From Burkholderiaceae bacterium (GTDB lineage Bacteria; Pseudomonadota; Gammaproteobacteria; Burkholderiales; Burkholderiaceae_C), in contig DASURM010000171.1 of assembly GCA_036280035.1 (NCBI GenBank), positions 1-37,726 of the forward strand: DNA of 37,726 nucleotides, in the 5' to 3' direction. The position numbers and the translations under genes are program-made. Positions 11,932 to 35,241 of this stretch are shown in pieces (the stretch's first letter is position 1; every line of letters begins with the position of its first letter). The notes under the pieces were generated by a model, which was not told where the DNA came from, ran no database searches, and saw only the letters and a list, made by a program, of their open reading frames with translations.

Positions 11932-11958
11932 TCGGCGACCCTCGTCAGCGTCCTTTCG

Positions 11959-13881: not shown

Positions 13882-14327
13882 GCGGACCTCCTTCATCGGA
13901 CGGATGCCCCGACACAACCTTGGTGCCGTCGACATCTGGGAAGTTCTGATGAAGTCCCGGCTGTACGGGCCCAGGCTCCATCAGAGCTTTCCGGTCTGCA
14001 ACGCTCGAGACCTCAGCCCCTCGCGTGTCTCAGCATAGCGATCCTGCTCGACCCGACGCCTCGAGTAAAGCCCGCACTTGTGCCCTGTTCGATTCGTACG
14101 TCATTCAGCGGTCATCGCGGCGTCGATCGGATGGTAGTGTCTTCAACGCAAGTGTGCGACCTACGGCTGACCCGACCGACTTCGTTGTGGGGCCCACTAT
14201 GCGCCGACTGCGCGGATGCTCAGAGGCGGGGCTCGTGGTCATCCTCTTGCAGAGGCATGAGCCGTGATGTAGCGCACGCGAGGTGTTGTAGCTGGCTCGA
14301 CAGGGCCCGGGGCAGAGGCCACCTCGT

Positions 14328-15221
14328 TCAGCCTTCGATCACTCCGAGCTTGTCGAGCAATCCCTCCAGTTCGTCCAACGACCCGAACGCAATGGCGATC
14401 TCGCCACGGCCACCTGCGCCACGACGCTTGAGGCGGATCTGCACCAGGGCGGTCAGACGATCGGCCAACTGCTCCTCGATCCGCAGGATGTCGCGCGACT
14501 TCTCGGCAGCTTGCGCCGACCTCCCGTTCGCGGCAGCGCGCCCATCGGATCGACGGGCGACCAGGCGCTCGGTTTCGCGCACCGAAAGGTGTTTGGCGAC
14601 GATTTCATTGGCGCACAGGATCTGCTCGGCCGCCGGCAAGGCCAGCAGCGCGCGCGCGTGACCCATTTCGAGGTCGCCAGCCATCAGCAGCTTCTGCACG
14701 GGCCCGGCCAGGTTGAGCAAGCGCATCAGGTTGCTGGCCGCGCTGCGCGAGCGCCCTACCGCCTGGGCGGCCTGGTCGTGGGTGAGCCGGAACTCGTCGA
14801 TCAGGCGCTGCAGGCCCTGTGCCTCTTCGAGCGGATTGAGATCCTCGCGCTGAATGTTCTCCACCAGCGACATCACGGCAGCGGCTTCGTCTGGCACATC
14901 GCGCACCAGCACCGGCACGTCGTCCAGGCCGGCAAGCCTCGCGGCACGCACGCGCCGCTCGCCGGCGATGATTTCGTAGCTACCCACGCCCAGCGGCCGC
15001 ACCAGCACCGGCTGCATCAGGCCCTGGCTCTTGATGCTCTGCGCCAGCTCCATGAGCGAGCCCTCGTCCATGCGCGTGCGCGGCTGATAGCGGCCCGGCT
15101 TGAGCTGGCTGAGCCGCAAGCTGCTCGGTTGCTGAGCCATCGCGGCCGGCGCCTCGGTCACCTTGGGACCCAACAGCGCCTCGAGCCCCATGCCCAGTCC
15201 CTTTGGTCTCTTGGTCACCAT
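14328..15221 (-). CDS. parB: Chromosome partitioning protein ParB
   Basis: Motifs KGLGMGLEALLG, the ParB box IIAGERRVRAARLAGL, and an HTH region. Confidence 0.9.
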   Translation of the reverse strand: MVTKRPKGLGMGLEALLGPKVTEAPAAMAQQPSSLRLSQLKPGRYQPRTRMDEGSLMELAQSIKSQGLMQPVLVRPLGVGSYEIIAGERRVRAARLAGLDDVPVLVRDVPDEAAAVMSLVENIQREDLNPLEEAQGLQRLIDEFRLTHDQAAQAVGRSRSAASNLMRLLNLAGPVQKLLMAGDLEMGHARALLALPAAEQILCANEIVAKHLSVRETERLVARRSDGRAAANGRSAQAAEKSRDILRIEEQLADRLTALVQIRLKRRGAGGRGEIAIAFGSLDELEGLLDKLGVIEG

Positions 15222-15316
15222 GGTGGGTCATTGTCGGCCATCGTGGACCGTGACGGCTCCAGGCAGCGGCGATTGACGATATCCTGTTGCACCGCAAACG
15301 CACCGCGGGTTCCAAG

Positions 15317-16264
15317 ATGAGCTACACCGTATACGTCGATGGCCAGGAAGGCACCACCGGTCTGCAGATCAACGAGTTGCTGGCACGCCGTCGCGACATC
15401 GAGGTACTGCGCATCGCCGGCGACCTGCGCAAGGACGACGCCGAGCGAGCCCGGCTGTTGAACGCGGCGGATGTGGTGTTCCTCTGCCTGCCCGATCAGG
15501 CCGCGCGCGAGGCAGCCAGTTGGGTGACCAACCCCCGCACGTGCGTCATCGACGCGAGCACGGCGCACCGCGTCGATCCGGGCTGGGTGTTCGGCCTGCC
15601 GGAGCTCGAGCGTGAGCAGCGCGATCGCTTGCGCCAACACAAGCGAATCAGCAATCCGGGCTGCCATGCCACCGCGTTCATCCTGCTGATTCGCCCGTTG
15701 GTCGATGCCGGGGTTATCGATGCCGACGCGGCGTTGTCTGCTACCTCGATCACTGGCTACTCGGGCGGCGGCCGCAAACTGATCGAGCAATACGAGACCA
15801 GGCCGCTGCCGCAACGCCTACAGTCACCGCGGCCCTATGGCTTGGCCCTCGGGCACAAGCATGTGCCGGAGATGACGCGTTGGGCCGGGTTGCAGACTCG
15901 CCCCGTGTTCATGCCCATCGTTGCCAATTTCTACAAGGGCTTGGCTGTAAGTGTGCCCTTGCATTTATCAGCATTGACCAGCGGCACCGATGCACGTCGC
16001 CTACACGATGCGCTGGGCGAACGCTATGCCGACGAGCGGTTCGTCAAGACGATGCCGCTTTCGGACGTGGCCGCGCTCGATGCCGGCTACTTCGATGTCC
16101 AGGCCTGCAATGACACCAACCGCTGCGAGGTCTTCGTGTTCGGCGGCGCCGACCAGGCGATTCTGATCGCGCGGTTGGACAACCTCGGCAAGGGGGCGAG
16201 CGGTGCCGCGGTGCAGTCGATGAACCTGCACCTGGGACTCGATGAGGGGTTGGGGCTCGTCTAG
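15317..16264 (+). CDS. argC: N-acetyl-gamma-glutamyl-phosphate reductase, short (type 2) form
   Basis: MSYTVYVDGQEGTTGL N-terminus and catalytic ISNPGCHATA. The start is taken at ATG 15317. Confidence 0.9.
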   Translation: MSYTVYVDGQEGTTGLQINELLARRRDIEVLRIAGDLRKDDAERARLLNAADVVFLCLPDQAAREAASWVTNPRTCVIDASTAHRVDPGWVFGLPELEREQRDRLRQHKRISNPGCHATAFILLIRPLVDAGVIDADAALSATSITGYSGGGRKLIEQYETRPLPQRLQSPRPYGLALGHKHVPEMTRWAGLQTRPVFMPIVANFYKGLAVSVPLHLSALTSGTDARRLHDALGERYADERFVKTMPLSDVAALDAGYFDVQACNDTNRCEVFVFGGADQAILIARLDNLGKGASGAAVQSMNLHLGLDEGLGLV

Positions 16265-17043
16265 TCGGTCAGTTCGGCCGCGGTTCGGTAGTGATACGAG
16301 TAGCCGTCGGCGAAACCCAGCCGCCAGTACACCGCCCGCGCCGGGTGGTTTGACGCATCGACCTGGAGATAGCCGATGCGGGCTCCGCGCTGCCGGGCGC
16401 GATCGAGCAACAGCGCGCAGAGCTTGCGCGCCCAGCCCTGGTTGCGGGATTGACTGGTCGTGAACACGTCGTACAGCCCGACCATGTCGGCCTCGGTGGC
16501 AGTCTGTCCGCACGCCAATGGCGTACTCTGACCATCGCGACGCAACGCCCAGCCTTCGAACGGCACCGGCGACAACTCGAGCCGCTGCGCGTGTGCTTGC
16601 TGCTGCGACAGCGGCGACCCTCGCAGTTGCCCCACCGTCTGTGCGAAGGCTGCATTTCCGAGGCGCTGCAGGCTCACCCCGGTCGGCAGCGGCTCGGCTG
16701 CAATCGTCCCCAGGTCGCCGTTGACCATGACGCGCGTATCGTCGAATGCCCGCAGCCCTTGCGACTCGAGCCATGCGTCGAGTTTCTGCGGCTGCGACAG
16801 GGGCGTCAGGCGCACGATGAGCGGCAGCTGCGCCTGATCGAAAACCTGCTGACACAACGCCAGCTTCTCCGGCAGCGCCAGGCGCCCTTGGGATACCGCG
16901 TTGACACAGCGCGCCCGCTTTGCCTTACCTGGCGAGAACCGCACCAGCCAGCCGTCGATCCAGCGCTGCTGCGGAGGCGCGCTGGCATTCAGGCCCGCGT
17001 CTTCCACGCGAGACAGGAGCGCCGTGGAAACGAGGGACCGCAT
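16261..17043 (-). CDS. GNAT-family N-acetyltransferase (two-domain type)
   Basis: C-terminal GNAT core VFTTSQSRNQGWARKLCALLLDRARQRGARIGYLQVDASNHPARAVYWRLGF. ATG 17041-17043 overlaps the parA stop (TGATG). The upstream 120 codons of the ORF are antisense noise. Confidence 0.7.
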   Translation of the reverse strand: MRSLVSTALLSRVEDAGLNASAPPQQRWIDGWLVRFSPGKAKRARCVNAVSQGRLALPEKLALCQQVFDQAQLPLIVRLTPLSQPQKLDAWLESQGLRAFDDTRVMVNGDLGTIAAEPLPTGVSLQRLGNAAFAQTVGQLRGSPLSQQQAHAQRLELSPVPFEGWALRRDGQSTPLACGQTATEADMVGLYDVFTTSQSRNQGWARKLCALLLDRARQRGARIGYLQVDASNHPARAVYWRLGFADGYSYHYRTAAELTD

Positions 17044-17852
17044 CAGGCGAGCTGCTCGACGCGCGCGACCATTTCGCGAGCGAACTCGAGGTAGGCCTGG
17101 GCGCCCTTCGACGCGGGGTCGAACACCACCCCCGGCTGGCCGTAGCTCGGCGCCTCGGCCAGGCGAACATTGCGCGGAATCACGGCGTCGAACACCTTGT
17201 CGCCGAAGTGGCCCTTCAACTGCTCGCTGACCTGCTGCTGCAGGGTGATGCGCGGGTCGAACATGACACGCAGCAGGCCGATGATCTGAAGTTCCGGGTT
17301 GAGGTTGGCATGCACTTGGCGGATCGTGTTCACCAGGTCGGTCAGCCCTTCGAGGGCGAAGTATTCGCATTGCATGGGCACGATCACGCCGTGCGCGCTG
17401 CACAGGCCGTTCAGCGTGAGCAGACTGAGGCTGGGTGGGCAGTCGACGACCACGATGTCGTATTCGCTGGCCACGGCCTCCAGTGCCCGGCGCAGGCGTT
17501 GGTCACGCCTTTCCAGCCCGACCAACTCGACTTCGGCTCCCGCCAACTCCCTGTTGGCGCCGAGAACGTCGTAACCGCCCACTTCGGAACGCTGGCGCGC
17601 CTCGGTGATCGTTGCCGTCTCGAGCAGAACATCGTAGACGGAGAGGCTCAGCGAGCGCTTGTCGACGCCCGACCCCATAGTGGCGTTGCCCTGAGGGTCC
17701 AAATCGACCAGCAGCACACGCTGCCCGACCTGGGCCAACCCGGCAGCCAGATTAACCGTCGTCGTGGTCTTGCCGACACCGCCCTTCTGATTCGCGATGC
17801 AAAAGACCCGGGACCGCTGCATCTGCGGCGGATCCGATAGATCTGCGGTCAT
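17043..17852 (-). CDS. parA: Chromosome partitioning ATPase ParA/Soj
   Basis: Deviant Walker A CIANQKGGVGKTTTTVNLA and DLDPQGNAT. The ATG overlaps the rsmG stop (ATGA). Confidence 0.9.
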   Translation of the reverse strand: MTADLSDPPQMQRSRVFCIANQKGGVGKTTTTVNLAAGLAQVGQRVLLVDLDPQGNATMGSGVDKRSLSLSVYDVLLETATITEARQRSEVGGYDVLGANRELAGAEVELVGLERRDQRLRRALEAVASEYDIVVVDCPPSLSLLTLNGLCSAHGVIVPMQCEYFALEGLTDLVNTIRQVHANLNPELQIIGLLRVMFDPRITLQQQVSEQLKGHFGDKVFDAVIPRNVRLAEAPSYGQPGVVFDPASKGAQAYLEFAREMVARVEQLA

Positions 17853-18523
17853 GGCGTTGTCCTACGCATCCAGATCAGGTTTCGTTCGGCATTCAACTCC
17901 GGAACCGTGACAGGTTCCACGTGAAACACCTCCACGCCCTTGTTCAATCGGGCGAACTCGTCTGACGGCGCTCGGCCCTTCATCGCGACCCACACCCCGT
18001 TCTGCACAAGGAGCCGCCCGGTCGACGCGATCAGCTTGTCGAGCGATGCGAACGCGCGCGACACCACCACATCGAATCCTTCGACCGGTTGCAGATGTTC
18101 GAGTCTGTCGTGGTGGGCGGTGAGGTTGGCGATTCCGGCCTCAGCAGCTGCCTGGCGGACGAAAGCCACCTTCTTTGCCACTGCATCGACGGCAGCGATC
18201 GCCCAGTCGGGTCGAAGCGCCGCGACCACGACGGCCGGAAACCCCGATCCCGATCCGGCATCGAGTACCCGCAACGATCTCCCCTTCGCGTGACGAGTCA
18301 AAGGCCCCACGAGAGTCATGCTGTCGAAGACATGTTGGACCATGTAATGCGAGAGGGTAGCTTGCGCACTCAGGTTATGAACTCGGTTCCAGCGGTCGAG
18401 ACAGGCTAGGTAGGCGAGCAACCGGAAGGCCTGCTCATCATCGATTGCGAGGCCCAACTGATGCGCACCGCTGACCAGTCGCTGCAAGAGCTCCGGCTCC
18501 GACCTCGAGCCTGCGCGAGGCAT
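17849..18523 (-). CDS. rsmG: 16S rRNA (guanine527-N7)-methyltransferase RsmG (GidB)
   Basis: SAM-binding motif VLDAGSGSGFPAVVVA, positioned downstream of mnmG. Confidence 0.9.
   Translation of the reverse strand: MPRAGSRSEPELLQRLVSGAHQLGLAIDDEQAFRLLAYLACLDRWNRVHNLSAQATLSHYMVQHVFDSMTLVGPLTRHAKGRSLRVLDAGSGSGFPAVVVAALRPDWAIAAVDAVAKKVAFVRQAAAEAGIANLTAHHDRLEHLQPVEGFDVVVSRAFASLDKLIASTGRLLVQNGVWVAMKGRAPSDEFARLNKGVEVFHVEPVTVPELNAERNLIWMRRTTP
17913..17928. other. parS centromere-like site
   Basis: GGTTCCACGTGAAACA matches the parS consensus TGTTNCACGTGAAACA at 15 of 16 positions. It lies inside the 3' end of rsmG. Confidence 0.8.
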
Positions 18524-18529
18524 TCTTCT

Positions 18530-20500
<1,971 letters not shown>

Positions 20501-20578: not shown

Positions 20579-22738
20579 TCAATGGGCTTTCTGCGACGCA
20601 ACGACTCCGCCCACCGAACGCAGCTCATGCGAGACGTTGCCATCGGCGAGCACCACCACCCGATCGGCGCTGGCGATCGTTTCAGGACGGTGGGCGACGA
20701 TCACGCGCGTCAGCTTCAATTGGCGGACGGCCTGATTGACGAGACGCTCACGCTCGACATCGAGCGCGCTCGTCGCCTCATCGAGAAACAAAACGCGCGG
20801 CCGCTTGTAGAGCGCGCGGGCCAGCAGCACGCGCTGCTTCTGGCCTCCCGAGAGCGTGGATCCCATCTCGCCGATCAGCGTGTAGTACCCCATCGGCAAG
20901 GCTGCAATCTCCTCGTGCACTGCCGCCATGCGGGCGCAATCGACCACCCGCTCCATGTCGGGTCGCGGGTCGAAGAAGCTGATGTTGTCGGCAACCGCAC
21001 CTGCAAACAGGGGCTCGTCCTGCATCACTGTGCCGACCATCGCTCGCCATGTCGCCGAGCCCATCGTCTCGAGAGGTCGTCCGCCGATCAACACCTCGCC
21101 CTGCACGGGAGACAGGATGCCCAGCATCAGCTTGATCAGCGTGGTCTTGCCGCAACCCGACGGACCCACGATGGCGATCGATTCGCCCGGCTCGATGCAC
21201 AGGCTCACGTTGCGCAGCACGTCGCCCTCGCTGTCGGAGTAGCGAAAGCCCACGCCCCGCAGCTCGATGCGCGGTGCGGCGGCGTCGCGGTCACCCGACC
21301 GCGACTCGAGGGCCTCGGCGTGCGCTCTCTCCGGCTCGCTGAGCACGATGTCGGCCAGGCGCTCGCCCTGCACCTTGAGCATGCCGAGCTCGGCCCACTT
21401 GTCGATCAGCGCGCCGACGCGTTGCGAGAACTGCTCCTTGTAGGCAACGAACGCGAGCAACATGCCGACCGTCAGGTTCTGGTCCAGCACGAGCGATGCA
21501 CCGATCCAGATCACGAGCACGCGCTCCAATCCGAACAGGCCCCGGTTGGCAACCGCCAGCGTCACCTCGAGGCGGCGCACGACCATGTCGGCATTCATCG
21601 CATCGACCACCAGGTTCATGAAGCGCGAGCGCCGATCGGCCTCGGCCGCGAACAACTTGATCGCCATCACGCCGCGCAACGACTCGAGGAAATGGCTGGT
21701 CTTCTTCGCATCGTGCACCAGCGCTTCCTCCGTCGCGCGGCGCATCGGCGCGAACAGCGCCCAACGCAGCACTGCGTAGACGACGACGAACGCCAGCACC
21801 ACGGCGCTCAACAGCAGGCTGTACAGCGCCATCATCACCAGCGTCGTCACCACCAACGCGCCGTCGAGCAGCACCTCGAGGAAGCTGGTCGTCAGCGTCT
21901 TCTGGATCTGCTGCACGGCGAAGAAGCGCGACCAGATGTCGCCCATGTGTCGCCGCTCGAACCACGCCAGCGGCAGACGCAACAGGTGAGCGAACACGTT
22001 GCCCAGCCACTGCAGGTTGAGGGTGGCCGACAGGTGCAACACCGCCCACGAGCGGATTGCCGCCGCAGCCACCTGGATCGCCACCAGCAGCGCGAACCCG
22101 ATGCCCAGCGTCACCAGCAAGTCGCGATCGGCAGTGACCAGGACGTCGTCGACCACCCACTGCAGGTAGAACGGGCTCAGCAGCACGAAGAACTCGAGCA
22201 CCAGCGCCAGCGCAACGATCTGCCCCAGCGAGCGCCTGAGCCCGACCACCCGCCCCAAGAGCTGGCGCATCGTGATGCGCCGCTGCTCGTCGCGGCGCTC
22301 GAACCCCGCGTCGGGGGTGAGTTCCATCGCCGCGCCCGTGAAATGCCGCGAAAGCCGGGCCCACTTCACCCAGTGCGCGCCACGGGCAGGGTCGTGGATC
22401 AACACCGCGTCGCGGCGCACCTTGACCAGCACGACGAAGTGGTTGAAGTCCCAATGCAGGATCGCAGGCAGCGGCAACTGCTCGAGCTGCTCGGGCTCGG
22501 CACGCACCGCTCTCGTCTGCAGCTTCAACGCGCGCGCCATGGTGGCCAGGTCGGCCATCGTGGCACCCTTGAGCGACAGGTTGAAGCGCTGGCGCAACGC
22601 CGGCAGGTCGACGTGCAGGCCGTGCGAGGCCGCGACCATCGCCAGGCAGGCCAGCCCGCACTCGGCCGCCTCGTTCTGCAGGATCACCGGCGTCCCGGGG
22701 GCGCCGAAGCCGATGCGCAGCGATCGGGCGACGGTCAT
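20579..22738 (-). CDS. Peptidase-containing ABC transporter (PCAT): N-terminal C39 peptidase, TMD and NBD
   Basis: C39 triad candidates are Cys in QNEAAECGLACLAMV, His in WDFNHFVVL and Asp in LIHDPA. Walker A GPSGCGKTTL, signature LSGGQKQRVLLARAL and Walker B LFLDEATSALD are present. The architecture is CvaB/ComA/RaxB-like. Confidence 0.9.
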   Translation of the reverse strand: MTVARSLRIGFGAPGTPVILQNEAAECGLACLAMVAASHGLHVDLPALRQRFNLSLKGATMADLATMARALKLQTRAVRAEPEQLEQLPLPAILHWDFNHFVVLVKVRRDAVLIHDPARGAHWVKWARLSRHFTGAAMELTPDAGFERRDEQRRITMRQLLGRVVGLRRSLGQIVALALVLEFFVLLSPFYLQWVVDDVLVTADRDLLVTLGIGFALLVAIQVAAAAIRSWAVLHLSATLNLQWLGNVFAHLLRLPLAWFERRHMGDIWSRFFAVQQIQKTLTTSFLEVLLDGALVVTTLVMMALYSLLLSAVVLAFVVVYAVLRWALFAPMRRATEEALVHDAKKTSHFLESLRGVMAIKLFAAEADRRSRFMNLVVDAMNADMVVRRLEVTLAVANRGLFGLERVLVIWIGASLVLDQNLTVGMLLAFVAYKEQFSQRVGALIDKWAELGMLKVQGERLADIVLSEPERAHAEALESRSGDRDAAAPRIELRGVGFRYSDSEGDVLRNVSLCIEPGESIAIVGPSGCGKTTLIKLMLGILSPVQGEVLIGGRPLETMGSATWRAMVGTVMQDEPLFAGAVADNISFFDPRPDMERVVDCARMAAVHEEIAALPMGYYTLIGEMGSTLSGGQKQRVLLARALYKRPRVLFLDEATSALDVERERLVNQAVRQLKLTRVIVAHRPETIASADRVVVLADGNVSHELRSVGGVVASQKAH

Positions 22739-22748
22739 GCTCGCGGCC

Positions 22749-23999
22749 TCAGAGACGGCCGGCCACGCCCAGCACCGGTGCGAACAGCCACTCGACGAGG
22801 CGGCGCCGTTCGAGCATCACGTCGGCGTCGAGCTGCATGCCGGCTGCCAGCGGCTGCTCGCGGCCGTACGCCATCACCGATTGCCGCGCCAAGCTCACCG
22901 TCACCCGATACATCGGCTCGTCGGGTTTGACCGCCAGCGGCAACGCGGCCAGCTCGCCGGCTTGCAGCGGCGTGCTCGACACCCGAATCACCGAGCCGAC
23001 CTGGTGGCCGAACTTCTGGTACGGGAATGCGGCCACCCGCATCCGCACCGCCTGCTGCGGGCGGATGAAGCCGAGCGCGCTCGACGGGGCATACAGATGG
23101 GCCTGCAGCCGCGTGTCGGACGGCACCAGGCTGGCGAGCGCGACGTCCGGCGACACGGTTTGCCCGGGCTCGGCCAGCACCGCAGCCAACGTGCCATCCT
23201 GCGGCGCACGAACCAGCAGTTCATGCCTGGCTTCGTTCTCGGCCGACTCCTGGGCCAGCGCCTGCGCCGCGCGTTGCAGCTCGCCGGCGCGTGCCTGCTC
23301 CTGCAGCGGCAACTCGCGGCGCTGGCCTTCGAGCGCGGCGATCTCGCGCTGCAGCGTGTTGCGCTGGCGCTCCAGCGCGACGAGTTGCGCCCGCAGCGCC
23401 AGCACCTCCTCGCCCTTGGTGTTGACCTGGGCGCCCGACACGAAGCGCTCGTCGCGCAGCGACTCCAGCCGCGTCAGCGTCTGCTGTGCCAGCGCAAGTC
23501 GCTGGCGCTGCAGCTCGGTCTCGGTGCCGATCTGCGTCACCTCCTGGCGCAGCCCGGCCAGGCGCTGCGTCAGGGCGGCCTCCTGCTCGCGGCTCAGTCG
23601 CCGGCGCGCCTGCAGAGTCTCGTTCAGGCTCTCCTGGCGCGCGCGCAGGCTGCTTTGCACGCGTTGCTGCGCCGTGCCGTCACCCAGGTGCTGGTCGAGC
23701 GTCAGCACGAACAACACATCGCCGGCATGAACGGCTTGGCCTTGCTGGACGCGCCGCTCGGCCACGGTGGCCAGTTGCGGGGCTACCAGGCGGATCCAGC
23801 CGCGATCGGGCACCAGCACGCCGTGCACATGCGCCTTGCGGGTGTATTCACCCAACGCCAGCCAGGCGCCGACCGCCACCGCGGCGCCGACCAGCACGAT
23901 CACCAGCACCGACAGCGACACCGGGCGCACGAGGCGCACCTCGCCCATCCATTGCTGGCGCTGCGCCTCGAGGGCCTCGTGCCGGAACAACGGCTTCAT
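22749..23999 (-). CDS. HlyD-family secretion adaptor (CvaA/ComB/RaxA-like)
   Basis: N-terminus MKPLFRHEALEAQRQQWMGEV, one TM helix, a long coiled-coil (QRLAGLRQEV...LERQRNTLQREIAALEGQ) and a C-terminal beta-barrel region. It ends 10 nt upstream of the PCAT gene. Confidence 0.85.
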   Translation of the reverse strand: MKPLFRHEALEAQRQQWMGEVRLVRPVSLSVLVIVLVGAAVAVGAWLALGEYTRKAHVHGVLVPDRGWIRLVAPQLATVAERRVQQGQAVHAGDVLFVLTLDQHLGDGTAQQRVQSSLRARQESLNETLQARRRLSREQEAALTQRLAGLRQEVTQIGTETELQRQRLALAQQTLTRLESLRDERFVSGAQVNTKGEEVLALRAQLVALERQRNTLQREIAALEGQRRELPLQEQARAGELQRAAQALAQESAENEARHELLVRAPQDGTLAAVLAEPGQTVSPDVALASLVPSDTRLQAHLYAPSSALGFIRPQQAVRMRVAAFPYQKFGHQVGSVIRVSSTPLQAGELAALPLAVKPDEPMYRVTVSLARQSVMAYGREQPLAAGMQLDADVMLERRRLVEWLFAPVLGVAGRL

Positions 24000-24026
24000 G
24001 GCAAACGCGGCCCCACAAACGCAGAA

Positions 24027-24047
24027 CGGCCCGGTTGTACCGGGCCG
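24027..24047 (-). terminator. Hairpin between the peptide gene and the exporter genes (possible partial terminator)
   Basis: CGGCCCGG-ttgta-CCGGGCCG is a perfect 8-bp stem. On the minus strand it is followed by TTCTGCGTTTGT, which is only moderately U-rich. Confidence 0.35.
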
Positions 24048-24101
24048 CCGACTTGCCGGCCGGAGGGGGGAAGCGCCGGCGCGTCGAGAGAACTCGGGTT
24101 G

Positions 24102-24254
24102 CTACCAGCCGCCGCGCGGCAGGCCCTGGCCGCCGGCGACTTGCGCCAGTTGGCGGGGCTCAAGCGGCTGCAGGGTTTTCTTCGGCTCGATCGCGACGTC
24201 GCGCTTGCCGGCAAACAAGGTCTTGAGCAACGAGGTCTTGCGGGTTTGCTGCAT
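24102..24254 (-). CDS. Double-glycine-leader peptide precursor, 50 aa, predicted 8-aa core QGLPRGGW
   Basis: Sequence MQQTRKTSLLKTLFAGKRDVAIEPKKTLQPLEPRQLAQVAGG/QGLPRGGW. GGAGA lies 5 nt upstream of the ATG and third-position GC is high. The leader has GG at -2/-1, V at -4 and L at -7, -12 and -15. The gene sits directly upstream of HlyD and a C39-ABC gene. Confidence 0.6.
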   Translation of the reverse strand: MQQTRKTSLLKTLFAGKRDVAIEPKKTLQPLEPRQLAQVAGGQGLPRGGW

Positions 24255-24330
24255 GGTGGTCTCCGTTCGGGGTGTCGCGCCTGGCCCATGGCGCATGACG
24301 GAGATTGCAGCAGCGGATGCTCGACCATGA

Positions 24331-24350
24331 AACTGTCAACTCTTACAGGG
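24331..24350. promoter_or_regulatory. lux-box-like inverted repeat upstream of the peptide gene
   Basis: AACTGTCAACTCTTACAGGG has the form CTGT-N8-ACAG and matches the V. fischeri lux box ACCTGTAGGATCGTACAGGT at 14 of 20 positions. A TGCAAT -10-like hexamer (minus strand, 24304-24309) lies about 34 bp from the box centre, which would put the box near -43. Confidence 0.5.
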
Positions 24351-24392
24351 TGACAGCGGCGGCGAATGCGGGCCAAATGTTACGGGCTTGCG

Positions 24393-25103
24393 TCAGCGAA
24401 TCAGGCCCAGCCGCAGAGCCTTGAGTACCGCCTGATGCTTGTTGACGCTGCCGAGCTTGCGCATCGCGTTGTTCAGGTGCAGCACGGCGGTGCGCTCGGT
24501 GATGCCGAGGATCGACCCGACCTCCCAGGCCGTCTTGCCTTCCATCGTCCAGCGCAGCGCCTCCAGCTCGCGCGGCGTCAGCGACGGCCCGTCCTGGCCC
24601 GCGGCCGGCAGCAGCACCCGCAGCGCCGCGTCGAGCGCGTGCACCGCGAACAGCTGCAGGTCGGCCACCACCCGGGTCAGCTCGTGGCGGTCGCTCGGCA
24701 GCGCACGATCACGGTCGACGCCGAGCATGAAGTGTTTGCCCTCGGGCAGATGCAGCGCCATCGCGATGCCGGTCTGATAGCCGTAGCGCGCCTGCTCCTC
24801 CCACAGCTCGCCCTGCCCCTGCGAGGTGTAGGTGCCCTGATCCCAGATGATCGGCAGGCTCTGCCGCTTGCAATGCTGCATCACCGGATCGCGTTGCATG
24901 GCACGCGCGTCGTTGAAGGCACCGCGCCACTCCTGCGGGGTGTTGTCGACGACGACGAACTCGCTGCGCCCGATGCCATGGTCGATCACCGTCACCGCGG
25001 AGACCGTATCGAAGCCCAACGCGCGGCCGAAGCGGACAACCTCCTCGCGGAACTCCTCACGGTTCCTCGCCTGCAGCACCGATGAATAACCGCCTTGCAG
25101 CAT
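24393..25103 (-). CDS. LuxR-family regulator with an N-terminal autoinducer-binding domain (LuxR solo in this window)
   Basis: C-terminal GerE/LuxR HTH LTPRELEALRWTMEGKTAWEVGSILGITERTAVLHLNNAMRKLG. The N-terminal domain shows the TraR-type spacing W-x12-DP-x13-W (EWRGAFNDARAMQRDPVMQHCKRQSLPIIW). Confidence 0.9.
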   Translation of the reverse strand: MLQGGYSSVLQARNREEFREEVVRFGRALGFDTVSAVTVIDHGIGRSEFVVVDNTPQEWRGAFNDARAMQRDPVMQHCKRQSLPIIWDQGTYTSQGQGELWEEQARYGYQTGIAMALHLPEGKHFMLGVDRDRALPSDRHELTRVVADLQLFAVHALDAALRVLLPAAGQDGPSLTPRELEALRWTMEGKTAWEVGSILGITERTAVLHLNNAMRKLGSVNKHQAVLKALRLGLIR

Positions 25104-25140
25104 GTGATCGAGTGCGCACTAGGGCGCTGGGCGCGCGCCG

Positions 25141-25160
25141 ACCTGAAAGGTCTTACAGAT
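25141..25160. promoter_or_regulatory. Second lux-box-like inverted repeat in the luxR / ORF-25218 divergent region
   Basis: ACCTGAAAGGTCTTACAGAT has the form CTG-N10-CAG and matches the lux box at 15 of 20 positions. It shares the 8-mer TCTTACAG and 13 of 20 positions with the box at 24331-24350. Confidence 0.5.
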
Positions 25161-25217
25161 TTCAAACGATTGCCGGTTGCCGAACACTAGTCGACACGGC
25201 AAACAACGAGTCGCATC

Positions 25218-25616
25218 ATGCAAACCAAGACCCACGCCTGTCCCCCCTGGACCCTTCGTGCCTGGCCGCCTCTATTGTGGCAGTTTGACAAGCTGCAGCC
25301 GCTCAGGTTGCGGCACTTGGGCACGCGCGTCACGAACCCCGGCGACCAAGTCTCGCGCACCTCCGGCCAGACCATCTGGGCGGCGGCAGCCGCCGACGGC
25401 CAGGCCGGCATGGCCTGGGACTGGATCCAGTTGTCGGCCGGCGTGGTGGCGATGGCCGACCCGCTGTCGGTGGTCACCAATCTGCACCTGGTCAGCGCCG
25501 ACGGCGACGCACTGAGTCCGCTGGAGTCGCTGCGTCACCTCAATGAAGTCGTGCACACGCTGCGCTGGCAGAACGAAGTCGAGCGCGTGCTCGCGGTCAA
25601 TGCGCAGGCGGCGTAG
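25218..25616 (+). CDS. Hypothetical Trp-rich protein (132 aa), family not recognised
   Basis: Third-position GC stays high across the ORF, most strongly from about 25330. It has 8 Trp in 132 residues and no obvious signal peptide or TM helix. It is divergent from the luxR homologue. The start is uncertain. Confidence 0.5.
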   Translation: MQTKTHACPPWTLRAWPPLLWQFDKLQPLRLRHLGTRVTNPGDQVSRTSGQTIWAAAAADGQAGMAWDWIQLSAGVVAMADPLSVVTNLHLVSADGDALSPLESLRHLNEVVHTLRWQNEVERVLAVNAQAA

Positions 25617-26786: not shown

Positions 26787-27547
26787 TCGCCAGCCCTGGC
26801 TTCGTCGGCAAAGGCCAGGCTGACGAAGGCCTGCTCGAAGTCGTCGTGCCCGCTCGCCCGGCACAGCTCGCCGACGCTGCCCTCGGCCACCGCGCGCCCG
26901 TGCGCCATCACCACCACGTGATCGCACAGGCGCTGCACCTCCTGCATGATGTGCGTGCAGAACACGATGCACTTGCCGTGCTCGTCGCGCAGCCGGCGCA
27001 GGGCCTGGCGCAACCCGCGGATCGACTGCACGTCGAGCCCGTTGGTCGGCTCGTCGAGCACGATGTTCGGCGGGTCGTGCACGAGCGCGCGCGCCAGCGC
27101 GGTTTTCATGCGCTCGCCCTGGCTGAAGCCGACCGTGCGCCGGTCGAGCAGCGGCTCGAAGTCGAGCGTGCGCGCCAGCGCCAGCGCCCGCGCATCGGCA
27201 GCGTCGCGGGCGATGCCGTGCAGGTGCGCGTGGTAGACGATGTTCTCGCGCGCCGTCAGCCGCGGATACAGGCCGCGCGCATCGGACAGCACGCCCAGCC
27301 GCGCCAGCGCGTCGCGCGGCCGAGCGACCACGTCGATGCCATCGACCTCGATGCGGCCTTCGTCGGGCGGCAGCAACGCCGCCACCATGCGCAGCAGGGT
27401 CGTCTTGCCGGCACCGTTGGGGCCGAGCACCGCGGTGATGCGGCCATCGGCGGCCGAGAGCGTCACGCCCCGCACCGCGTCGACCACACGCCTGGCGCGC
27501 CCACGTCCCTGCACGAAGCGCTTGTGCAGTCGGTCCACCCGGATCAT
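26783..27547 (-). CDS. ABC transporter ATP-binding protein (NatA-like)
   Basis: Walker A GPNGAGKTTLL, signature FSQGERMKTALARAL and Walker B IVLDEPTNGLD. ATG 27545-27547 overlaps the upstream stop (ATGA). Confidence 0.9.
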   Translation of the reverse strand: MIRVDRLHKRFVQGRGRARRVVDAVRGVTLSAADGRITAVLGPNGAGKTTLLRMVAALLPPDEGRIEVDGIDVVARPRDALARLGVLSDARGLYPRLTARENIVYHAHLHGIARDAADARALALARTLDFEPLLDRRTVGFSQGERMKTALARALVHDPPNIVLDEPTNGLDVQSIRGLRQALRRLRDEHGKCIVFCTHIMQEVQRLCDHVVVMAHGRAVAEGSVGELCRASGHDDFEQAFVSLAFADEARAGE

Positions 27548-29010
27548 CGGGCCGACCCCGCGGCCTGGCCGAGCGGAACGAACAGACGAGGCCGCGGCAG
27601 CGCCTGAGCGCAGCTTGCGTCGACCTTCAGCGCAGCGTCGTCGTCGCGCGCCTCGATGAACCGTACCACCGCATCGCGCAGGCACGGCAATGCCATCACG
27701 CCATGGCCGGCGTTGGGCACCTCCGTGTGCCGAGCCTTCGGCCCCAGCGCGCGCGCGATCCGCTCACCGTGGCGCGGCGGCGTCGCCGGGTCCGCTGCGC
27801 CCGACAGCACCCAGGTCACCGCCGGCGCGGGTGGCGTGGTGTAGAAGCTCGCGGCCACGGCACCGCGCGGCCACGAGGCGCACGCCTGCTCGTACAGCCG
27901 TGCGAATGCGTCGCCGAACTGGGCGCCGGGGGCGCCGGGGGCCTGACCCAATCGCGGCACGTCTTCGGCGCACACCACCGAAAAGTGCATGCCGGTGTAC
28001 AGCGCCGCGCCCGGCCCCCTCATCGCCGAGGCCAGCCCCGTCAGCGCATCGAACCGGCCCGCCGCGGCATCGCCGATCGCCGCCGGCAGCACCGCCGCGA
28101 GCGCCGGCACGTACAGCGCCGAACGCACCATGCCCAGCACCTCGTCGCGCGTCAGTCGCACCGACTCGAGTCGGCCCGTCAGCGGGTCGGTCAACTCCAC
28201 CTGGCGCGGCAGCGCGTCGAGCACGCCTAGCCACAGCGCTCGCAGGCGCGGATGGCGGGCTCGACAGTCGACGTCGGCTGCACACCAGTCGAACAGGGCA
28301 TCGAGAGCGGCCTGGTTGTCGATCGAGAACGATGCCGGCAACACCATGTCGGCCGGCGCCACGCCGTCGAGCACGACCCGCCGCACCGCGCGCGGAAACA
28401 GTCGCATGTACTCCAGCGCTGCGCGCGTGCCGTACGACGCCCCCACGAGGTTGATGGTGGGCGCACCGAGTGCAGCGCGCACCGCCTCGACATCGGCCAT
28501 CGCGATCGACGTGGTGTAGCGGCGCAGGTCGCCGTAGGGCAGCTTCGTCAACTGCTCGCGGCACGAGGCCAGTTGCGCCAGCTGCCGCTGCGGGTCGAGC
28601 TGCCCGACCAGCGGGCGCAGCGCCTGGCGATCGCTCTCGCAGCGCAGCGGCGCGCTGCGGCCGGTACCCCGCTGATCGACGAACACCAGGTCGCGCCGAT
28701 TGTTCAGCCGCCCCAGCTGCGCGGCCACGGGGCCGGCGAGTTCGATCGCGCTCTGGCCCGGTCCGCCGGCGAAGAAGAACACCGCGTCCGCCAGCTTGTG
28801 CTGCGCCAGCGCAGGCAGCAGCGCGAAGTGCACGTCGATCTTCGTGCCGTCGGGCTGCGCCGGGTCGAGCACACGCCGCACGCTGCCGCACAGTGCGTCG
28901 TGGGTCACCCCCTCGAGCCGACACGGCGTCAGAGGGGCCGCCTGCGCGGCGGCCGCGAACGCCAGCCCGGTTAAGCCGACGGTCCAGCGCAAGCTCCACC
29001 GGGTCGTCAT
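27544..29010 (-). CDS. Secreted alpha/beta hydrolase (TAP-like / tripeptidyl-aminopeptidase-type)
   Basis: Signal peptide MTTRWSLRWTVGLTGLAFAAAAQA, then FFFAGGPGQSAIE, VDQRGTGRS, nucleophile elbow GASYG and C-terminal PNAGHGV. The upstream 295 codons of the ORF are a run-on. Confidence 0.85.
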   Translation of the reverse strand: MTTRWSLRWTVGLTGLAFAAAAQAAPLTPCRLEGVTHDALCGSVRRVLDPAQPDGTKIDVHFALLPALAQHKLADAVFFFAGGPGQSAIELAGPVAAQLGRLNNRRDLVFVDQRGTGRSAPLRCESDRQALRPLVGQLDPQRQLAQLASCREQLTKLPYGDLRRYTTSIAMADVEAVRAALGAPTINLVGASYGTRAALEYMRLFPRAVRRVVLDGVAPADMVLPASFSIDNQAALDALFDWCAADVDCRARHPRLRALWLGVLDALPRQVELTDPLTGRLESVRLTRDEVLGMVRSALYVPALAAVLPAAIGDAAAGRFDALTGLASAMRGPGAALYTGMHFSVVCAEDVPRLGQAPGAPGAQFGDAFARLYEQACASWPRGAVAASFYTTPPAPAVTWVLSGAADPATPPRHGERIARALGPKARHTEVPNAGHGVMALPCLRDAVVRFIEARDDDAALKVDASCAQALPRPRLFVPLGQAAGSAR

Positions 29011-29127
29011 CGCCGCGCATTGTCCACGGCTGACGCGGCGACGCGCGAGCATGCCCCGACGGCGCGCCGTGAATTCGGTCCGCGCTATGCTGCTTCGCAC
29101 CTTGCCACCCATCAGGAGATTCGACCG

Positions 29128-29736
29128 ATGAAGCTCTACTACAGCCCCGGGGCCTGTTCGCTGAGCCCACACATCGTGCTGCGCGAACTGGGGCTGCCGT
29201 TCGAAGCCGTGCTGGCCAGCACCAAGACGCACAAGCTGACCGACGGCACCGACTACTACGCCATCAACCCCAAGGGCTACGTGCCGTTGCTCGAACTCGA
29301 CGACGGCCAACGCCTCAGCGAAGGGCCGGCGATCGTTCAGTACCTGGCCGATCTGGCACCTGCCAAAGGCCTGGTCGCGCCGGCCGGCACGATGGCGCGC
29401 TATCGGCAGATGGAGTGGCTGAACTTCATCACCAGCGAGATTCACAAGTCGTACTCGCCGCTGTTCAACCCGGCGATGCCCGAGGAGGGCAAGGTGGTCT
29501 ACCGCAAGCGCCTGCGGGGCCGCTACGAATACCTGAATCAGCAGCTCGAAGGCCGCTCGTACCTGATGGGCGATGCCTTCTCGGTGGCCGACGCCTACCT
29601 GTTCACCGTGACCAAGTGGGCGCCGCACGTCTTCGTCGACATCACCGACCTCGCCCATGTGCAGGCATACCAGAAGCGCGTCGCGGCTCGCCCCGCGGTG
29701 CAGGAGGCGATGAAGGCCGAGGGCCTGCCCGGGTAG
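29128..29736 (+). CDS. Glutathione S-transferase (beta class, GstA-like)
   Basis: MKLYYSPGACSLSPHIVLRELGLPFE with the catalytic Cys/Ser region, and INPKGYVPLLELDDG. AGGAGA lies 8 nt upstream of ATG 29128. Confidence 0.9.
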   Translation: MKLYYSPGACSLSPHIVLRELGLPFEAVLASTKTHKLTDGTDYYAINPKGYVPLLELDDGQRLSEGPAIVQYLADLAPAKGLVAPAGTMARYRQMEWLNFITSEIHKSYSPLFNPAMPEEGKVVYRKRLRGRYEYLNQQLEGRSYLMGDAFSVADAYLFTVTKWAPHVFVDITDLAHVQAYQKRVAARPAVQEAMKAEGLPG

Positions 29737-29756
29737 CGTGCGGCCGGGGCGCCGGC

Positions 29757-31346
29757 TCAGGTGCTCGCCCTGGCTGCCGGCTGGAACGTGCGGCCGCAGG
29801 CTGCATGTTCGGCGGCGCCGTCGAGCTTGGCGCACACCGGCTCGAGCCGGCTGCGCAGACGGGCGACCACGGCGTCGTGCCGGCCGTCGCGGTTCCACTT
29901 CGCGAGCTGCTGATCCACGCGCGCCAGCGAGCGGGCGCTGCGGCCGTCGAACGCACCCCGGTCGAGCGCAGCCTGCTCGATCATGCTCCCGACCGCGTGC
30001 TCCAGCCGCGTCTCGTCATTCGGAGCCAGCTCGACCAGCGCGCTCACGTACTGCGCGCCCCATTGCAGGCGCGTGGCCGGCCCCTCGCTGCGGGCGAACG
30101 CCTGCTCGTACCAGCGCAGCGCCTCGTCGTTGCGGCCGAGCTTGCGCGCGTTGCCGGCGAGCTGACTCATCAGGTAGTACGGCGAGTGGCTCTTGGCCAG
30201 ATTGGCCTTCAGCAGCGCGTCGGACTCGGCCCACAGCCCCGCCTGGCCGAGGATGTACGCCGCCGCCGTGACCACCGCCTGGCGCTCGTAGCCGTCGGCG
30301 ACTTCGCGGTCGGCCGCCGTGCTGGCGTCGCGCACCTGCTTCAACAGCGGCGCCGGCATGCGCGGGTGGCGCTCGGCCCTCTGCCGGTCGATGCGCGCGA
30401 GGTCGACGCGCGCGCCCAGCGCGGTCAGGCGGTCGGCGCGCGATAGCGTGGCATCGGCCTGCAGGCGCTGCAGCGCGACATCGAACGCGCTGGCGATGGC
30501 CTTGCGGTCGGCGCTGCCGGGAGTCGACAGCGCTTTCGTGATCTCGGAGGCGTAGTTGGTCAGCACGTCCATCTGCGCGCGCGCGACCAACGGGTCGGCC
30601 AGCCAGCCGCGCACGCGCTGGCGCAGCGCGGCGTCGGGCTTCACCCCCTTGCCGTCGTCGCTGTCGGCCAGCGCCTTTAGCATCAGGCGGGTCGCGCTGG
30701 CGGCCTCGCCGCTCGGGCACGCGGTCGACAGGCTCGCCAGCACTCCCGGCCGCTGGGCCGGCGGCAACAGCTGCGCCTCGTCGTTGATCCACGAATAGAA
30801 CGCCAGCATTCGCCACTCGGCGCCGGGCAGCGGCTTGCCGGCGCGGGCGTCGGCCAGCACGTCCTTGGCGGCGCGGCCCCCGGCCAGTCCGAACTCCAGC
30901 AACCGCAGCACCTGTGGCGGGTCGGCCTCGCCGGGCAGCCGCACCAGCTCGCTGCCGTCGTTTCGCATCAGCACCATCGTCGGATAGCCGCTGACCTTGA
31001 AGCGCGAGCCCAGCTTCTGCGCGCCTGGCAGATCGCCATCGATGTCCACCGCGACCAGCGACTTGCTGCGCTCGATGAAATCGTGGCGGTTGAACAGCGT
31101 GGCCTTCAGCTGGTTGCACGGCGGGCACCACTTGGCGCCCCAGTACAACAGCACCGGTTTGTCACCGGCGCGGGCCTGCGCGAACGCGCGCTCGATGTCG
31201 GCGTCGTTGGCCGCGGGCTGCCAGGCCACGCCGTCGACGGCAGCGCGGGCCGTGCCGGCCAGGCTCAGGGCGAGGCAGGCCGCAAGTCCGAACCGGTGCG
31301 CCGCGGCGAGCCCGCGGCCGGCAATGGCGGCGATCGGTATACGCAT
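29757..31346 (-). CDS. Exported thioredoxin-fold protein with WCPPC motif and a long helical C-terminal domain
   Basis: Signal peptide-like N-terminus (MRIPIAAIAG...LAGTARA), VLLYWGAKWCPPCNQLKATLF, and a repeat-like helical C-terminal region of about 350 aa. The start could be 31346 or 31355. Confidence 0.75.
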   Translation of the reverse strand: MRIPIAAIAGRGLAAAHRFGLAACLALSLAGTARAAVDGVAWQPAANDADIERAFAQARAGDKPVLLYWGAKWCPPCNQLKATLFNRHDFIERSKSLVAVDIDGDLPGAQKLGSRFKVSGYPTMVLMRNDGSELVRLPGEADPPQVLRLLEFGLAGGRAAKDVLADARAGKPLPGAEWRMLAFYSWINDEAQLLPPAQRPGVLASLSTACPSGEAASATRLMLKALADSDDGKGVKPDAALRQRVRGWLADPLVARAQMDVLTNYASEITKALSTPGSADRKAIASAFDVALQRLQADATLSRADRLTALGARVDLARIDRQRAERHPRMPAPLLKQVRDASTAADREVADGYERQAVVTAAAYILGQAGLWAESDALLKANLAKSHSPYYLMSQLAGNARKLGRNDEALRWYEQAFARSEGPATRLQWGAQYVSALVELAPNDETRLEHAVGSMIEQAALDRGAFDGRSARSLARVDQQLAKWNRDGRHDAVVARLRSRLEPVCAKLDGAAEHAACGRTFQPAARAST

Positions 31347-33680: not shown

Positions 33681-33710
33681 GATGCCGCATGCGCGGCGCC
33701 GCGCGCAGCC

Positions 33711-34832: not shown

Positions 34833-35209
34833 TTGGCCCTTCCCTCGGTCAGCGCCTTGTTCACCGCGGCGAGAAACGGCTTGATCGAGATCGGCTTGGC
34901 GATGAAGCCGTCGAAGCCCGAGCGCACGATGCGCTGCTGCTCGTCTGGCATCACCGAGGCCGACACCGCGAGCACCGGCATCGCGTCGAGCGACGCGTCT
35001 TCGCGGATGCGCGCCAGCACCGTTGCGCCGTCGATGCCGGGCAACTGGATGTCCATCAGCACGAGGTCGGGTCGTGCGCTCAGCGCCAGCGCAAGACCCG
35101 CTTCGCCGGTGTCGGCTTCCAGCGTGTGGTGCCCGTGGTGCCGCAGCAGATCGCGCACCAGCTTCATGTTCTTCGCGTTGTCTTCGACGATCAAGATGGT
35201 CTTGGGCAT
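34829..35209 (-). CDS. Single-domain response regulator (CheY-like)
   Basis: MPKTILIVEDNAKNMKL, LVLMDIQLPGIDG and FIAKPI. GAGG lies 6 nt upstream of ATG 35207-35209. Confidence 0.9.
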   Translation of the reverse strand: MPKTILIVEDNAKNMKLVRDLLRHHGHHTLEADTGEAGLALALSARPDLVLMDIQLPGIDGATVLARIREDASLDAMPVLAVSASVMPDEQQRIVRSGFDGFIAKPISIKPFLAAVNKALTEGRAK

Positions 35210-35241
35210 TGAGGGCCTCGCTGGATCTGCGACGTCTGAGG

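Follow-up and report, generated by a model that had tools for sequence, protein, structure and literature searches.

A LuxR-family receptor that may be tuned to a gene-encoded hexapeptide: a candidate quorum-sensing-type cassette in Burkholderiales

The window analyzed here is a stretch of 37,726 nucleotides from a Burkholderiaceae bacterium (GenBank assembly GCA_036280035.1, contig DASURM010000171.1, positions 1 to 37,726 of the forward strand). It contains a cassette in which a gene for a LuxR-family receptor lies between a divergent rsaM-like gene and an operon for a small double-glycine (GG)-leader peptide, an HlyD-family adaptor and a peptidase-containing ATP-binding cassette (ABC) transporter (PCAT). 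Comparison with related loci suggests that the peptide is the LuxR protein's own ligand, in place of an acyl-homoserine lactone (AHL), and that the cassette is a self-contained quorum-sensing-type circuit; the probability of this reading is put at roughly 0.6. With marginally less confidence, the cassette would represent the first LuxR-family receptor with a gene-encoded, unmodified hexapeptide autoinducer (x-P-x-x-x-W), exported in most lineages by PCAT and HlyD and diversified into pherotypes that the receptor pocket tracks, while a derived leaderless and exporter-less form would act as a cell-autonomous switch.

The gene order is rsaM-like, luxR, lux box 1, peptide gene, hlyD and PCAT, with the rsaM-like gene on the plus strand, divergent from luxR, and all others on the minus strand. 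Two in-frame stop codons separate luxR from the peptide gene, and the cassette is flanked by an ABC-2 operon on one side and mnmG on the other. Its features are as follows.

20579-22738, minus strand: PCAT (C39 double-glycine protease, transmembrane domain and ATPase), from Pfam domains and synteny in related loci
22749-23999, minus strand: HlyD-family periplasmic adaptor (Pfam HlyD_3, 1e-14, and HlyD_D23; NCBIfam type_I_hlyD, 4.6e-33), syntenic
24025-24049, minus strand: GC-rich hairpin of 11 bp in the peptide gene-hlyD spacer, from folding (region z-score -1.38, weak)
24102-24254, minus strand: precursor peptide gene, 50 residues, an open reading frame (ORF) with an equivalent behind box 1 in related loci
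24102-24104, minus strand: stop codon of the peptide gene
24105-24122, minus strand: unit LPRGGW, conserved in related loci
24105-24128, minus strand: core QGLPRGGW
24129-24254, minus strand: leader, ending LEPRQLAQVAGG
24261-24264, minus strand: Shine-Dalgarno sequence GGAG, 6 nt upstream of the peptide ATG
24304-24309, minus strand: -10-like hexamer TGCAAT of the putative peptide operon promoter, in a conserved block
24331-24350, minus strand: lux box 1, CCCTGTAAGAGTTGACAGTT (16-mer core 24333-24348), conserved upstream of the peptide operon
24393-25103, minus strand: LuxR-family receptor of 236 residues with an altered ligand pocket (Pfam Autoind_bind and GerE)
25141-25160, minus strand: lux box 2, ATCTGTAAGACCTTTCAGGT, 55 nt upstream of the luxR ATG, in the 114-bp divergent intergenic region between luxR and the rsaM-like gene
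25218-25616, plus strand: RsaM-like (DUF4902) protein, divergent from luxR (Pfam DUF4902, E 2.6e-5)

A preliminary description of the window, made from its letters alone, had named the PCAT, the HlyD adaptor, the small ORF, the LuxR homologue and two lux boxes, and each was recovered at these positions. Its count of five elements was right as far as it went, except that the RsaM-like gene (25218-25616, plus strand) inside the same interval had been overlooked. For comparison, the LuxR protein was searched against one genome per GTDB species, which returned 341 relatives, of which 80 loci were kept; a metagenome scan added at least 80 further loci, giving a combined set of 160 related loci.

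The precursor starts MQQ and reads MQQTRKTSLLKTLFAGKRDVAIEPKKTLQPLEPRQLAQVAGG up to and including the double glycine, followed by QGLPRGGW, exactly the 50-codon GG-leader gene with eight residues past the GG that had been reported. Eight residues do follow the GG, but the conserved element is the hexapeptide LPRGGW rather than the whole octapeptide. The ORF listing also offers a 64-residue version (24102-24296, minus strand) starting at the ATG at 24296. The 50-residue form is the likely product, because orthologues start at the MQQ codon (24254) and the ATG at 24296 has no Shine-Dalgarno sequence and coincides with the inferred transcription start. The screen for peptides in related loci demanded a Shine-Dalgarno-like motif, which was found in the great majority of loci.

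Each related locus with hlyD has a small GG-leader ORF between luxR and hlyD (consensus L..V.GG); conservation of the small ORF beside PCAT had been set beforehand as a test, and the ORF is retained across related loci. The cores consist of one to five copies of a hexapeptide unit, x0-P-x1-x2-x3-W, with the variants LPRGGW, LPKGGW, APKSTW, GPNGGW, GPHGGW, IPVGGW and GPKKYW. The unit is present in 125 of 132 distinct peptides, 54 of which carry two to five copies, and all PxxxW units of a multi-unit precursor are identical in 46 of these 54. The last tryptophan is the C-terminal residue in 97 of the 125 unit peptides and lies no more than four residues from the end in 122. Residues ahead of LPRGGW vary in close relatives (QG in the window; ES-, VGETG- and LTETG- elsewhere), and some peptides extend past the unit by a Q, N or G. 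Thirteen close homologues of the peptide are present in the protein database, all named 'hypothetical protein' and without a Pfam family, and NCBIfam has a model for neither the peptide nor the RsaM-like protein.

One line of evidence for a link between peptide and receptor comes from their co-variation. A neighbour-joining tree was built from 122 non-identical LuxR/peptide pairs, character states were reconstructed by Fitch parsimony, and changes falling on the same branch were counted and assessed with a hypergeometric test. The strongest pair joins Asn or His at x1 with Lys or Arg at the position of LasR F101 (residue 100 of the window receptor, a Leu), with two-by-two tip counts of 40/3/1/78. 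All 15 changes at residue 101 fall on branches with one of the 18 peptide-class changes, out of 242 branches (p 3e-21). When 175 variable LuxR columns were scanned for x1, LasR101 reached 6e-13 and the next best column 1e-3; because a single column stands out in this way, tree error is excluded as the cause. On the same tree x0 changes with LasR127 (2e-6) and LasR76, Lys versus Arg at x1 with LasR 60-64, and Gly at x3 with LasR70 (3e-4).

The parsimony and hypergeometric null ignores branch lengths, a weakness addressed by the column-specific contrast and by protein controls. On an independent tree, built from LuxR columns outside LasR 30-135 together with the RsaM-like protein, the pairing of x1 with LasR101 gives 3e-13 (13 of 14 co-changes in the binary test, p 3e-17), x0 pairs with LasR127 (3e-8), LasR36 (1e-5) and LasR52 (2e-4), and x2 pairs with LasR64 (6e-6). 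A set of 25 LasR ligand-contact residues, tabulated in PMC11231148, includes six of the ten best co-changing columns, versus 18 of 171 variable columns (Fisher p 9e-5). The best column of the DNA-binding domain or linker reaches only 4e-3, and the best values for the other cassette proteins are about 7e-4 for the RsaM-like protein (612 tests), 5e-4 for HlyD (2172 tests) and 3e-4 for PCAT (2916 tests). The co-change signal is specific, as none of these controls shows anything comparable.

Two other ways of describing the co-variation were discarded. Raw mutual information did not discriminate, being swamped by phylogeny and entropy, and parsimony co-change was used instead. A simple charge swap at residue 101 (basic peptide with a hydrophobic residue, non-basic peptide with Lys) met 25 exceptions in the larger set, in which the rule pairing Asn or His with Lys holds. 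A small further subclass lacks the tryptophan (loci L019, L046, L049, L051, L064 and L067), and its core begins and ends with a repeated LPRVG, LPRIGGL or LPRVS. In most of the corresponding LuxRs the positions of LasR residues 40, 50 and 76 are changed (Val to Met, Phe to Leu and Met to Leu, respectively); these residues are acyl-tail contacts in LasR.

Loss of the exporter provides a second line of evidence. A GG leader together with the unit occurs in 103 loci with an adjoining exporter, beside a LuxR/RsaM-like pair, which bears out the earlier view of the elements as one conserved module, and in nine loci without one. A leaderless peptide with the unit occurs in no locus with an adjoining exporter, in eight without one and in one more on a short contig. 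Nine species-level genomes (L015, L017, L020, L024, L035, L047, L054, L066 and L078), which lack hlyD and PCAT, keep luxR, the rsaM-like gene, box 1, the Shine-Dalgarno sequence and a leaderless ORF of 10 to 22 residues, located about 80 to 90 nt past box 1, downstream of luxR. The leaderless ORFs end LPR(N/A)GW, as in MQATHQTQTTTLLPRNGW, MQAVKTVSTRPVQLPRAGW and the shortest, MQTMLPRAGW, and they form a single clade nested in the family. A further exporter-less genome (L062) has five TPRGGSW repeats and no GG leader. Given these co-occurrence counts, the leader tracks the exporter and the unit tracks LuxR.

The receptor itself is a full-length LuxR-family protein. It matches Pfam Autoind_bind (PF03472, 1.1e-26) and GerE (PF00196, 1.6e-14), both above gathering scores, and aligns over its full length with the structures of LasR, RhlR, QscR, CviR, SdiA and TraR; the HMMER match to LasR (E 7.5e-24) covers residues 46-235. 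The description of it as an AHL-receptor type is sound for the Autoind_bind/GerE fold and doubtful for the ligand. The conserved AHL-contact residues of such receptors (TraR Y53, W57, Y61, D70, P71, W85 and G113) are not all present in the window receptor, which has T55, W59, F63, D72, P73, W87 and G at these positions. Across the family, the position of LasR Y56 (TraR Y53) holds T, A, C, S or M and never Tyr, that of W60 (TraR W57) holds W, F or Y, and that of Y64 (TraR Y61) varies. The positions of LasR D73, P74, W88 and G113 are invariant, and those of LasR L125 and S129 are an invariant His and an invariant Gly. Within the ligand-binding domain, entropy peaks in a hot spot at LasR 56-72 (2.15 vs 0.87 bits, p 6.5e-6). 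The broader idea that the whole AHL pocket is hypervariable was refuted (0.98 bits vs 1.03 for the rest of the ligand-binding domain), the hot spot being confined to this segment.

As the preliminary description had stated, the window ORFs scanned contain no LuxI (Autoind_synth) domain, and no LuxI-type domain is conserved in the flanks of related loci, a survey that did not cover the whole genome. A luxI gene sought downstream of luxR in the exporter-less loci was not evident; the leaderless peptides occur there instead.

Box 1 is a putative LuxR site for activation of the peptide-hlyD-PCAT operon. Its consensus, CTGTAAGAnyTGACAG, is found in 68 of 68 genome loci that have the peptide gene and in 150 of 157 loci whose sequence reaches far enough past luxR. 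The exact 16-mer occurs once in the window versus 0.06 expected, and in 1.88 Mb of sequence from related loci the pattern turns up only once outside the positions of the two boxes. A block gCTGcTGnAAT stands at a fixed distance past box 1 in 141 distinct sequences, with the -10-like hexamer 24-29 nt past the 16-mer. Measured from the inferred transcription start, the centre of box 1 thus lies at about -43, which is the class II geometry of lux-type promoters, in which a 20-bp inverted repeat lies near -42.5. The peptide ATG follows 76-89 nt past box 1 in related loci. Because the boxes are conserved, they are not chance matches. The earlier claim that the operon is wired to LuxR is well supported in silico, since the boxes are conserved and confined to two sites ahead of the genes concerned, activation being the presumed sign of regulation. 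Box 1 presumably resembles the cep box.

Box 2 (CTG-N10-CAG) is present in 72 of 80 genome loci; the eight that fail all lack the exporter and read ATGTAAAC..., with ATGT instead of CTGT. As a partial terminator, the hairpin at 24025-24049 may govern how much peptide is made relative to exporter. It was not picked up by the terminator scan, which was uninformative, as was the promoter consensus scan.

The PCAT gene encodes all parts expected of this class: Peptidase_C39 (1.5e-36) with Cys, His and Asp, ABC_membrane (2.8e-37) and ABC_tran (1.9e-32). Its N-terminal 150 residues best match the double-glycine protease domain 6MPZ (LahT150, E 4e-21), and the Gln/Cys, His and Asp motifs (LQNEAAECGLACL, NHFVVL and IHDPA) align with those of PCAT1 and LahT150, in agreement with the intact-looking C39 triad noted earlier. 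Against NCBIfam it matches NHLM_micro_ABC1 (8e-151) under that model's cut-off. A potential substrate with a double-glycine leader lies nearby, next to the adjoining HlyD. A gap of 10 nt separates hlyD from the PCAT gene downstream of it, and they therefore probably form one operon. The cassette contains no TolC-like gene, although no genome-wide search for one was made.

The RsaM-like protein is presumed to be a modulator of the circuit. Its gene adjoins luxR in 79 of 80 genome loci. DUF4902 scores 24.5 bits in the window protein, against a cut-off of 25, and is matched by 37 of 46 family members; a profile of the 46 orthologues has a sole, weak match in the PDB, BcRsaM (4O2H, E 0.086).

These features are consistent with the following circuit. 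LuxR bound at box 1 would activate the peptide-hlyD-PCAT operon, giving positive feedback as at luxI genes, and at box 2 it would control luxR, the rsaM-like gene or both. PCAT would cut the 50-residue precursor after Gly42 and, together with HlyD and an outer-membrane channel encoded elsewhere, would export QGLPRGGW. The active moiety would be the C-terminal unit LPRGGW (x0-P-x1-x2-x3-W), possibly after trimming: aminopeptidases generally stall ahead of an X-Pro bond, which would make x0-P... a natural trimming limit. The peptide would then re-enter the cell and occupy the remodelled AHL pocket of LuxR, while the RsaM-like protein would damp the loop, as RsaM does in AHL systems. Between species the unit would diversify like a pherotype and the pocket would follow. 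The LasR pocket takes synthetic agonists of about pentapeptide mass, so size alone is no bar to peptide binding.

Several points weigh against this circuit. Binding, export, processing and re-import are each deduced from computation. LuxR-family pockets are buried, and no member of the family is known to have a peptide ligand. An importer, a trimming protease and an outer-membrane channel are not conserved in the cassette of related loci. Pocket positions were assigned by aligning the receptors to the distantly related LasR, and those at 36-40 depend on MAFFT only and are less certain, as the HMMER alignment begins at 46. The window and locus L002 have identical pocket residues with the units LPRGGW and LPKGGW, so Lys versus Arg at x1 is not strictly read out. 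A bump-hole pairing of Gly at x3 with LasR70 was strong at the tips of the tree and disappeared from the top columns on the independent tree. The leaderless class shows that a peptide can act without an exporter, so cell-to-cell signalling is not universal in the family. Finally, the peptide may be either an agonist or an antagonist of LuxR.

Among the other explanations, it is rather unlikely that LuxR is a solo regulator sensing something else (foreign AHLs, a small molecule or nothing) and that the peptide is simply its product, serving as an effector or as a signal to some unlinked receptor. The conserved lux box ahead of the peptide operon, which shows LuxR control, speaks for such an arrangement, as do the retention of D73, P74, W88 and G113 of the AHL-binding fold and the lack of an importer in the cassette. 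It leaves unexplained, however, why the peptide co-changes with specific pocket columns and not with the exporter proteins, and why a leaderless unit is retained beside LuxR after exporter loss, and the equivalents of Y56 and W60 are not conserved. On the same grounds, pocket co-evolution and a unit kept after loss of leader and exporter, the coupling of two signalling layers or the effector role proposed in the preliminary description is less likely than a peptide that is LuxR's own ligand. Less probable again is a model with no cell-to-cell step, in which the peptide stabilizes, activates or titrates LuxR in the cell that makes it, and the exporter tunes the intracellular peptide level in a cell-autonomous switch. 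The leaderless peptides of 10 to 22 residues in nine exporter-less genomes would suit this, as would the missing importer and the position of the unit at the extreme C-terminus in 97 of 125 peptides, where it is exposed in the precursor. Nevertheless, 103 of about 120 informative loci keep the GG leader and an exporter with an intact protease site, which would be costly as a mere sink; the leaderless class is one derived clade; and many precursors have residues past the tryptophan or internal units, so that processing is needed.

A LuxR-regulated class II microcin or an antimicrobial locus like those for ribosomally synthesized and post-translationally modified peptides (RiPPs), with its modification and immunity genes elsewhere, is very improbable. 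GG leader, PCAT and HlyD do constitute the export architecture of colicin V-type microcins, and the best NCBIfam matches are NHLP bacteriocin exporters, but these scores are under the family cut-offs. Class II microcins are peptides of tens of residues with a linked immunity gene; here the core has only six to eight residues (eight in the window, with a unit of six) and no extra gene is conserved in either genomic context. No RiPP-type modification enzyme is conserved beside the cassette, in which only the rsaM-like gene, luxR, hlyD and PCAT accompany the peptide, although a distant enzyme could exist; the absence of modification and immunity genes noted in the window thus extends to the neighbourhoods of related loci. 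Identical repeated units and leaderless variants are ill-suited to a toxin, and the co-variation lies with the pocket of the regulator.

If the peptide is indeed the ligand of LuxR, the cassette resembles several known systems in part. The closest by descent are the LuxI/LuxR/RsaM AHL systems (CepIR-BcRsaM of Burkholderia and PfsIR-RsaM of Pseudomonas fuscovaginae), with which it shares the Autoind_bind and GerE receptor, the placement of luxR next to a gene of the RsaM family and, before the signal-production gene, a 20-bp box (CTG-N10-CAG) at about -43, with positive feedback. Unlike them, it has a precursor peptide and an exporter where the LuxI synthase would sit, and the AHL-contact residues Y56 and W60 (LasR numbering) are not conserved in its receptors. 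The closest by logic are the Photorhabdus LuxR solos PluR, with PpyS (photopyrones), and PauR, with DarABC (dialkylresorcinols), where a LuxR with a remodelled pocket likewise stands beside a signal gene other than luxI (class C in PMC10134790). Their signals are enzyme-made metabolites of polyketide type, whereas that of the cassette would be a gene-encoded peptide that requires a leader protease and exporter and varies by species.

The closest systems by function are the peptide systems of ComC/ComAB and RRNPP type. As in ComC/ComAB and BlpC/BlpAB of Gram-positives and RaxX/RaxAB of Xanthomonas, an LxxxxLxxVxGG leader would be cut and the product exported by a C39-ABC protein with an accessory protein, and the peptide shows pherotype-like diversification. 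ComC, BlpC and RaxX peptides, however, are detected at the surface, through a histidine kinase or a host receptor, and have at least 17 residues or are sulfated, whereas the cassette has a hexapeptide unit, a linked cytoplasmic LuxR-family receptor and no two-component system; no Com/Blp-type two-component genes lie within the cassette in any related locus. With the RRNPP systems (PlcR/PapR, Rgg/SHP and the arbitrium pair AimR/AimP) the cassette shares a short unmodified C-terminal peptide (5-8 residues in RRNPP), an adjacent cytoplasmic transcription factor and co-diversification of receptor and peptide. RRNPP receptors have a tetratricopeptide repeat (TPR) fold and their peptides, exported by Sec or PptAB and imported by Opp, belong to Firmicutes and their phages; the cassette receptor instead has the GAF/PAS-like Autoind_bind fold, export would proceed through PCAT and HlyD, and the hosts are Betaproteobacteria.

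A review of RsaM describes, in the portion available, a divergent rsaM-luxR 'type 6' topology in which luxI either lies at a distance or is missing from the genome (PMC10710839). The cassette shares this divergent pair without luxI, and that portion makes no mention of a downstream peptide gene, an exporter or a ligand. The full-text literature searched, of which coverage is incomplete, contains no account of a double-glycine peptide with a linked LuxR, in line with the earlier remark that no such system had been described. Such a class is not among the categories of a 2023 review of LuxR solos (PMC10134790), nor is it mentioned in the available part of a 2015 survey. The new element would therefore be LuxR-type quorum sensing with a gene-encoded class of signal, although earlier descriptions may exist.

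Textbook quorum sensing sets AHLs and LuxR in Gram-negatives against exported peptides, read by kinases or RRNPP receptors, in Gram-positives. If the proposed ligand is correct, the cassette joins both kinds, in that a peptide signal with double-glycine export is read by a LuxR-type receptor. The Autoind_bind pocket would then be retunable to peptides, Gram-negative Burkholderiales would have a peptide language on an AHL-receptor scaffold, a large group of 'LuxR solos' would gain a function and the 'type 6' rsaM-luxR topology would be explained. It would also provide a natural specificity code, in which x1, x0 and x2 are matched to residues 100, 126 and 63, respectively (window numbering), and orthogonal, genetically encodable signal-receptor pairs for synthetic biology. 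Through these co-varying pairs the hypothesis is open to direct tests that use synthetic peptides and point mutants.

The cassette loci, about 150 in number, belong to Burkholderiales of soil and water. The 80 kept loci come from Ideonella, Rubrivivax, Methylibium, Roseateles, Paucibacter, Rhizobacter, Piscinibacter, Leptothrix and many metagenome-assembled genomes (MAGs); among the matches listed, the nearest LuxRs are 94% (a Burkholderiaceae MAG) and 89% (an Ideonella MAG) identical to that of the window. In about 65 of the 80 genome loci hlyD and PCAT follow luxR. The LuxR group comprises 3906 protein clusters at E < 1e-20 and is common in metagenomes of soil, rhizosphere and wastewater. 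The cassette occupies at least two chromosomal contexts, between an ABC-2 operon and mnmG, as in the window, and between hscA-fdx and tsaD, and no other accessory genes are conserved with it across either. Since the two contexts share no other gene, the mobile unit consists of the rsaM-like gene, luxR, the peptide gene, hlyD and PCAT.

Some loci deviate from this plan. The nine with a GG leader (...VVLDDQALSQVAGG) and no adjoining hlyD or PCAT include L057, L079, L089, L092, L101, L106-L108 and L116/L117, and their exporter may be encoded elsewhere in the genome. In L093 and L097 ...SQVAGS replaces the GG. Loci of the hscA-fdx ... tsaD context (L048, L079 and about 25 others) have a conserved ORF of 96 residues (MKEYRLLAWPELPAEYRRTAHRRALSEMSQRF...), which follows the rsaM-like gene on its strand after about 180 nt and has no counterpart in the window.

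Two genes past the rsaM-like gene, the window encodes an alpha/beta hydrolase with a TAP-like C-terminal domain (Abhydrolase_1 and Abhydrolase_4; 27544-29898, minus strand). It has a signal-peptide-like N-terminus (MTTRWSLRWTVGLTGLAFAAAAQA), and its ORF is probably over-extended at the 5' end. It belongs to a secreted aminopeptidase-type family and is a candidate for trimming the exported peptide, but it does not accompany the cassette in the second genomic context.

On its other side the cassette directly adjoins mnmG, which belongs to an origin-proximal set on the minus strand (14328-20500) comprising parB (14328-15221), parA (17043-17852), an rsmG-like gene (17849-18523) and mnmG (18530-20500); a semialdehyde-dehydrogenase gene (15287-16264, plus strand) lies between parA and parB. 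Further along is a conserved yeaG-yeaH-type stress module (10642-13935, minus strand) with a PrkA serine kinase (11959-13935) and a DUF444/YeaH-like gene (10642-11931). At the opposite end, a signalling cluster (33021-37726, minus strand) whose kinase portion (33.7-37.7 kb) is unrelated to the cassette by position and not syntenic with it encodes a HAMP-GAF histidine kinase (35459-37726, running off the window), a single-domain response regulator (34829-35317), a response regulator-adenylate/guanylate cyclase fusion (33711-34832) and a Crp-family regulator (33021-33680). This cluster looks like a phosphorelay feeding cyclic nucleotide to Crp.

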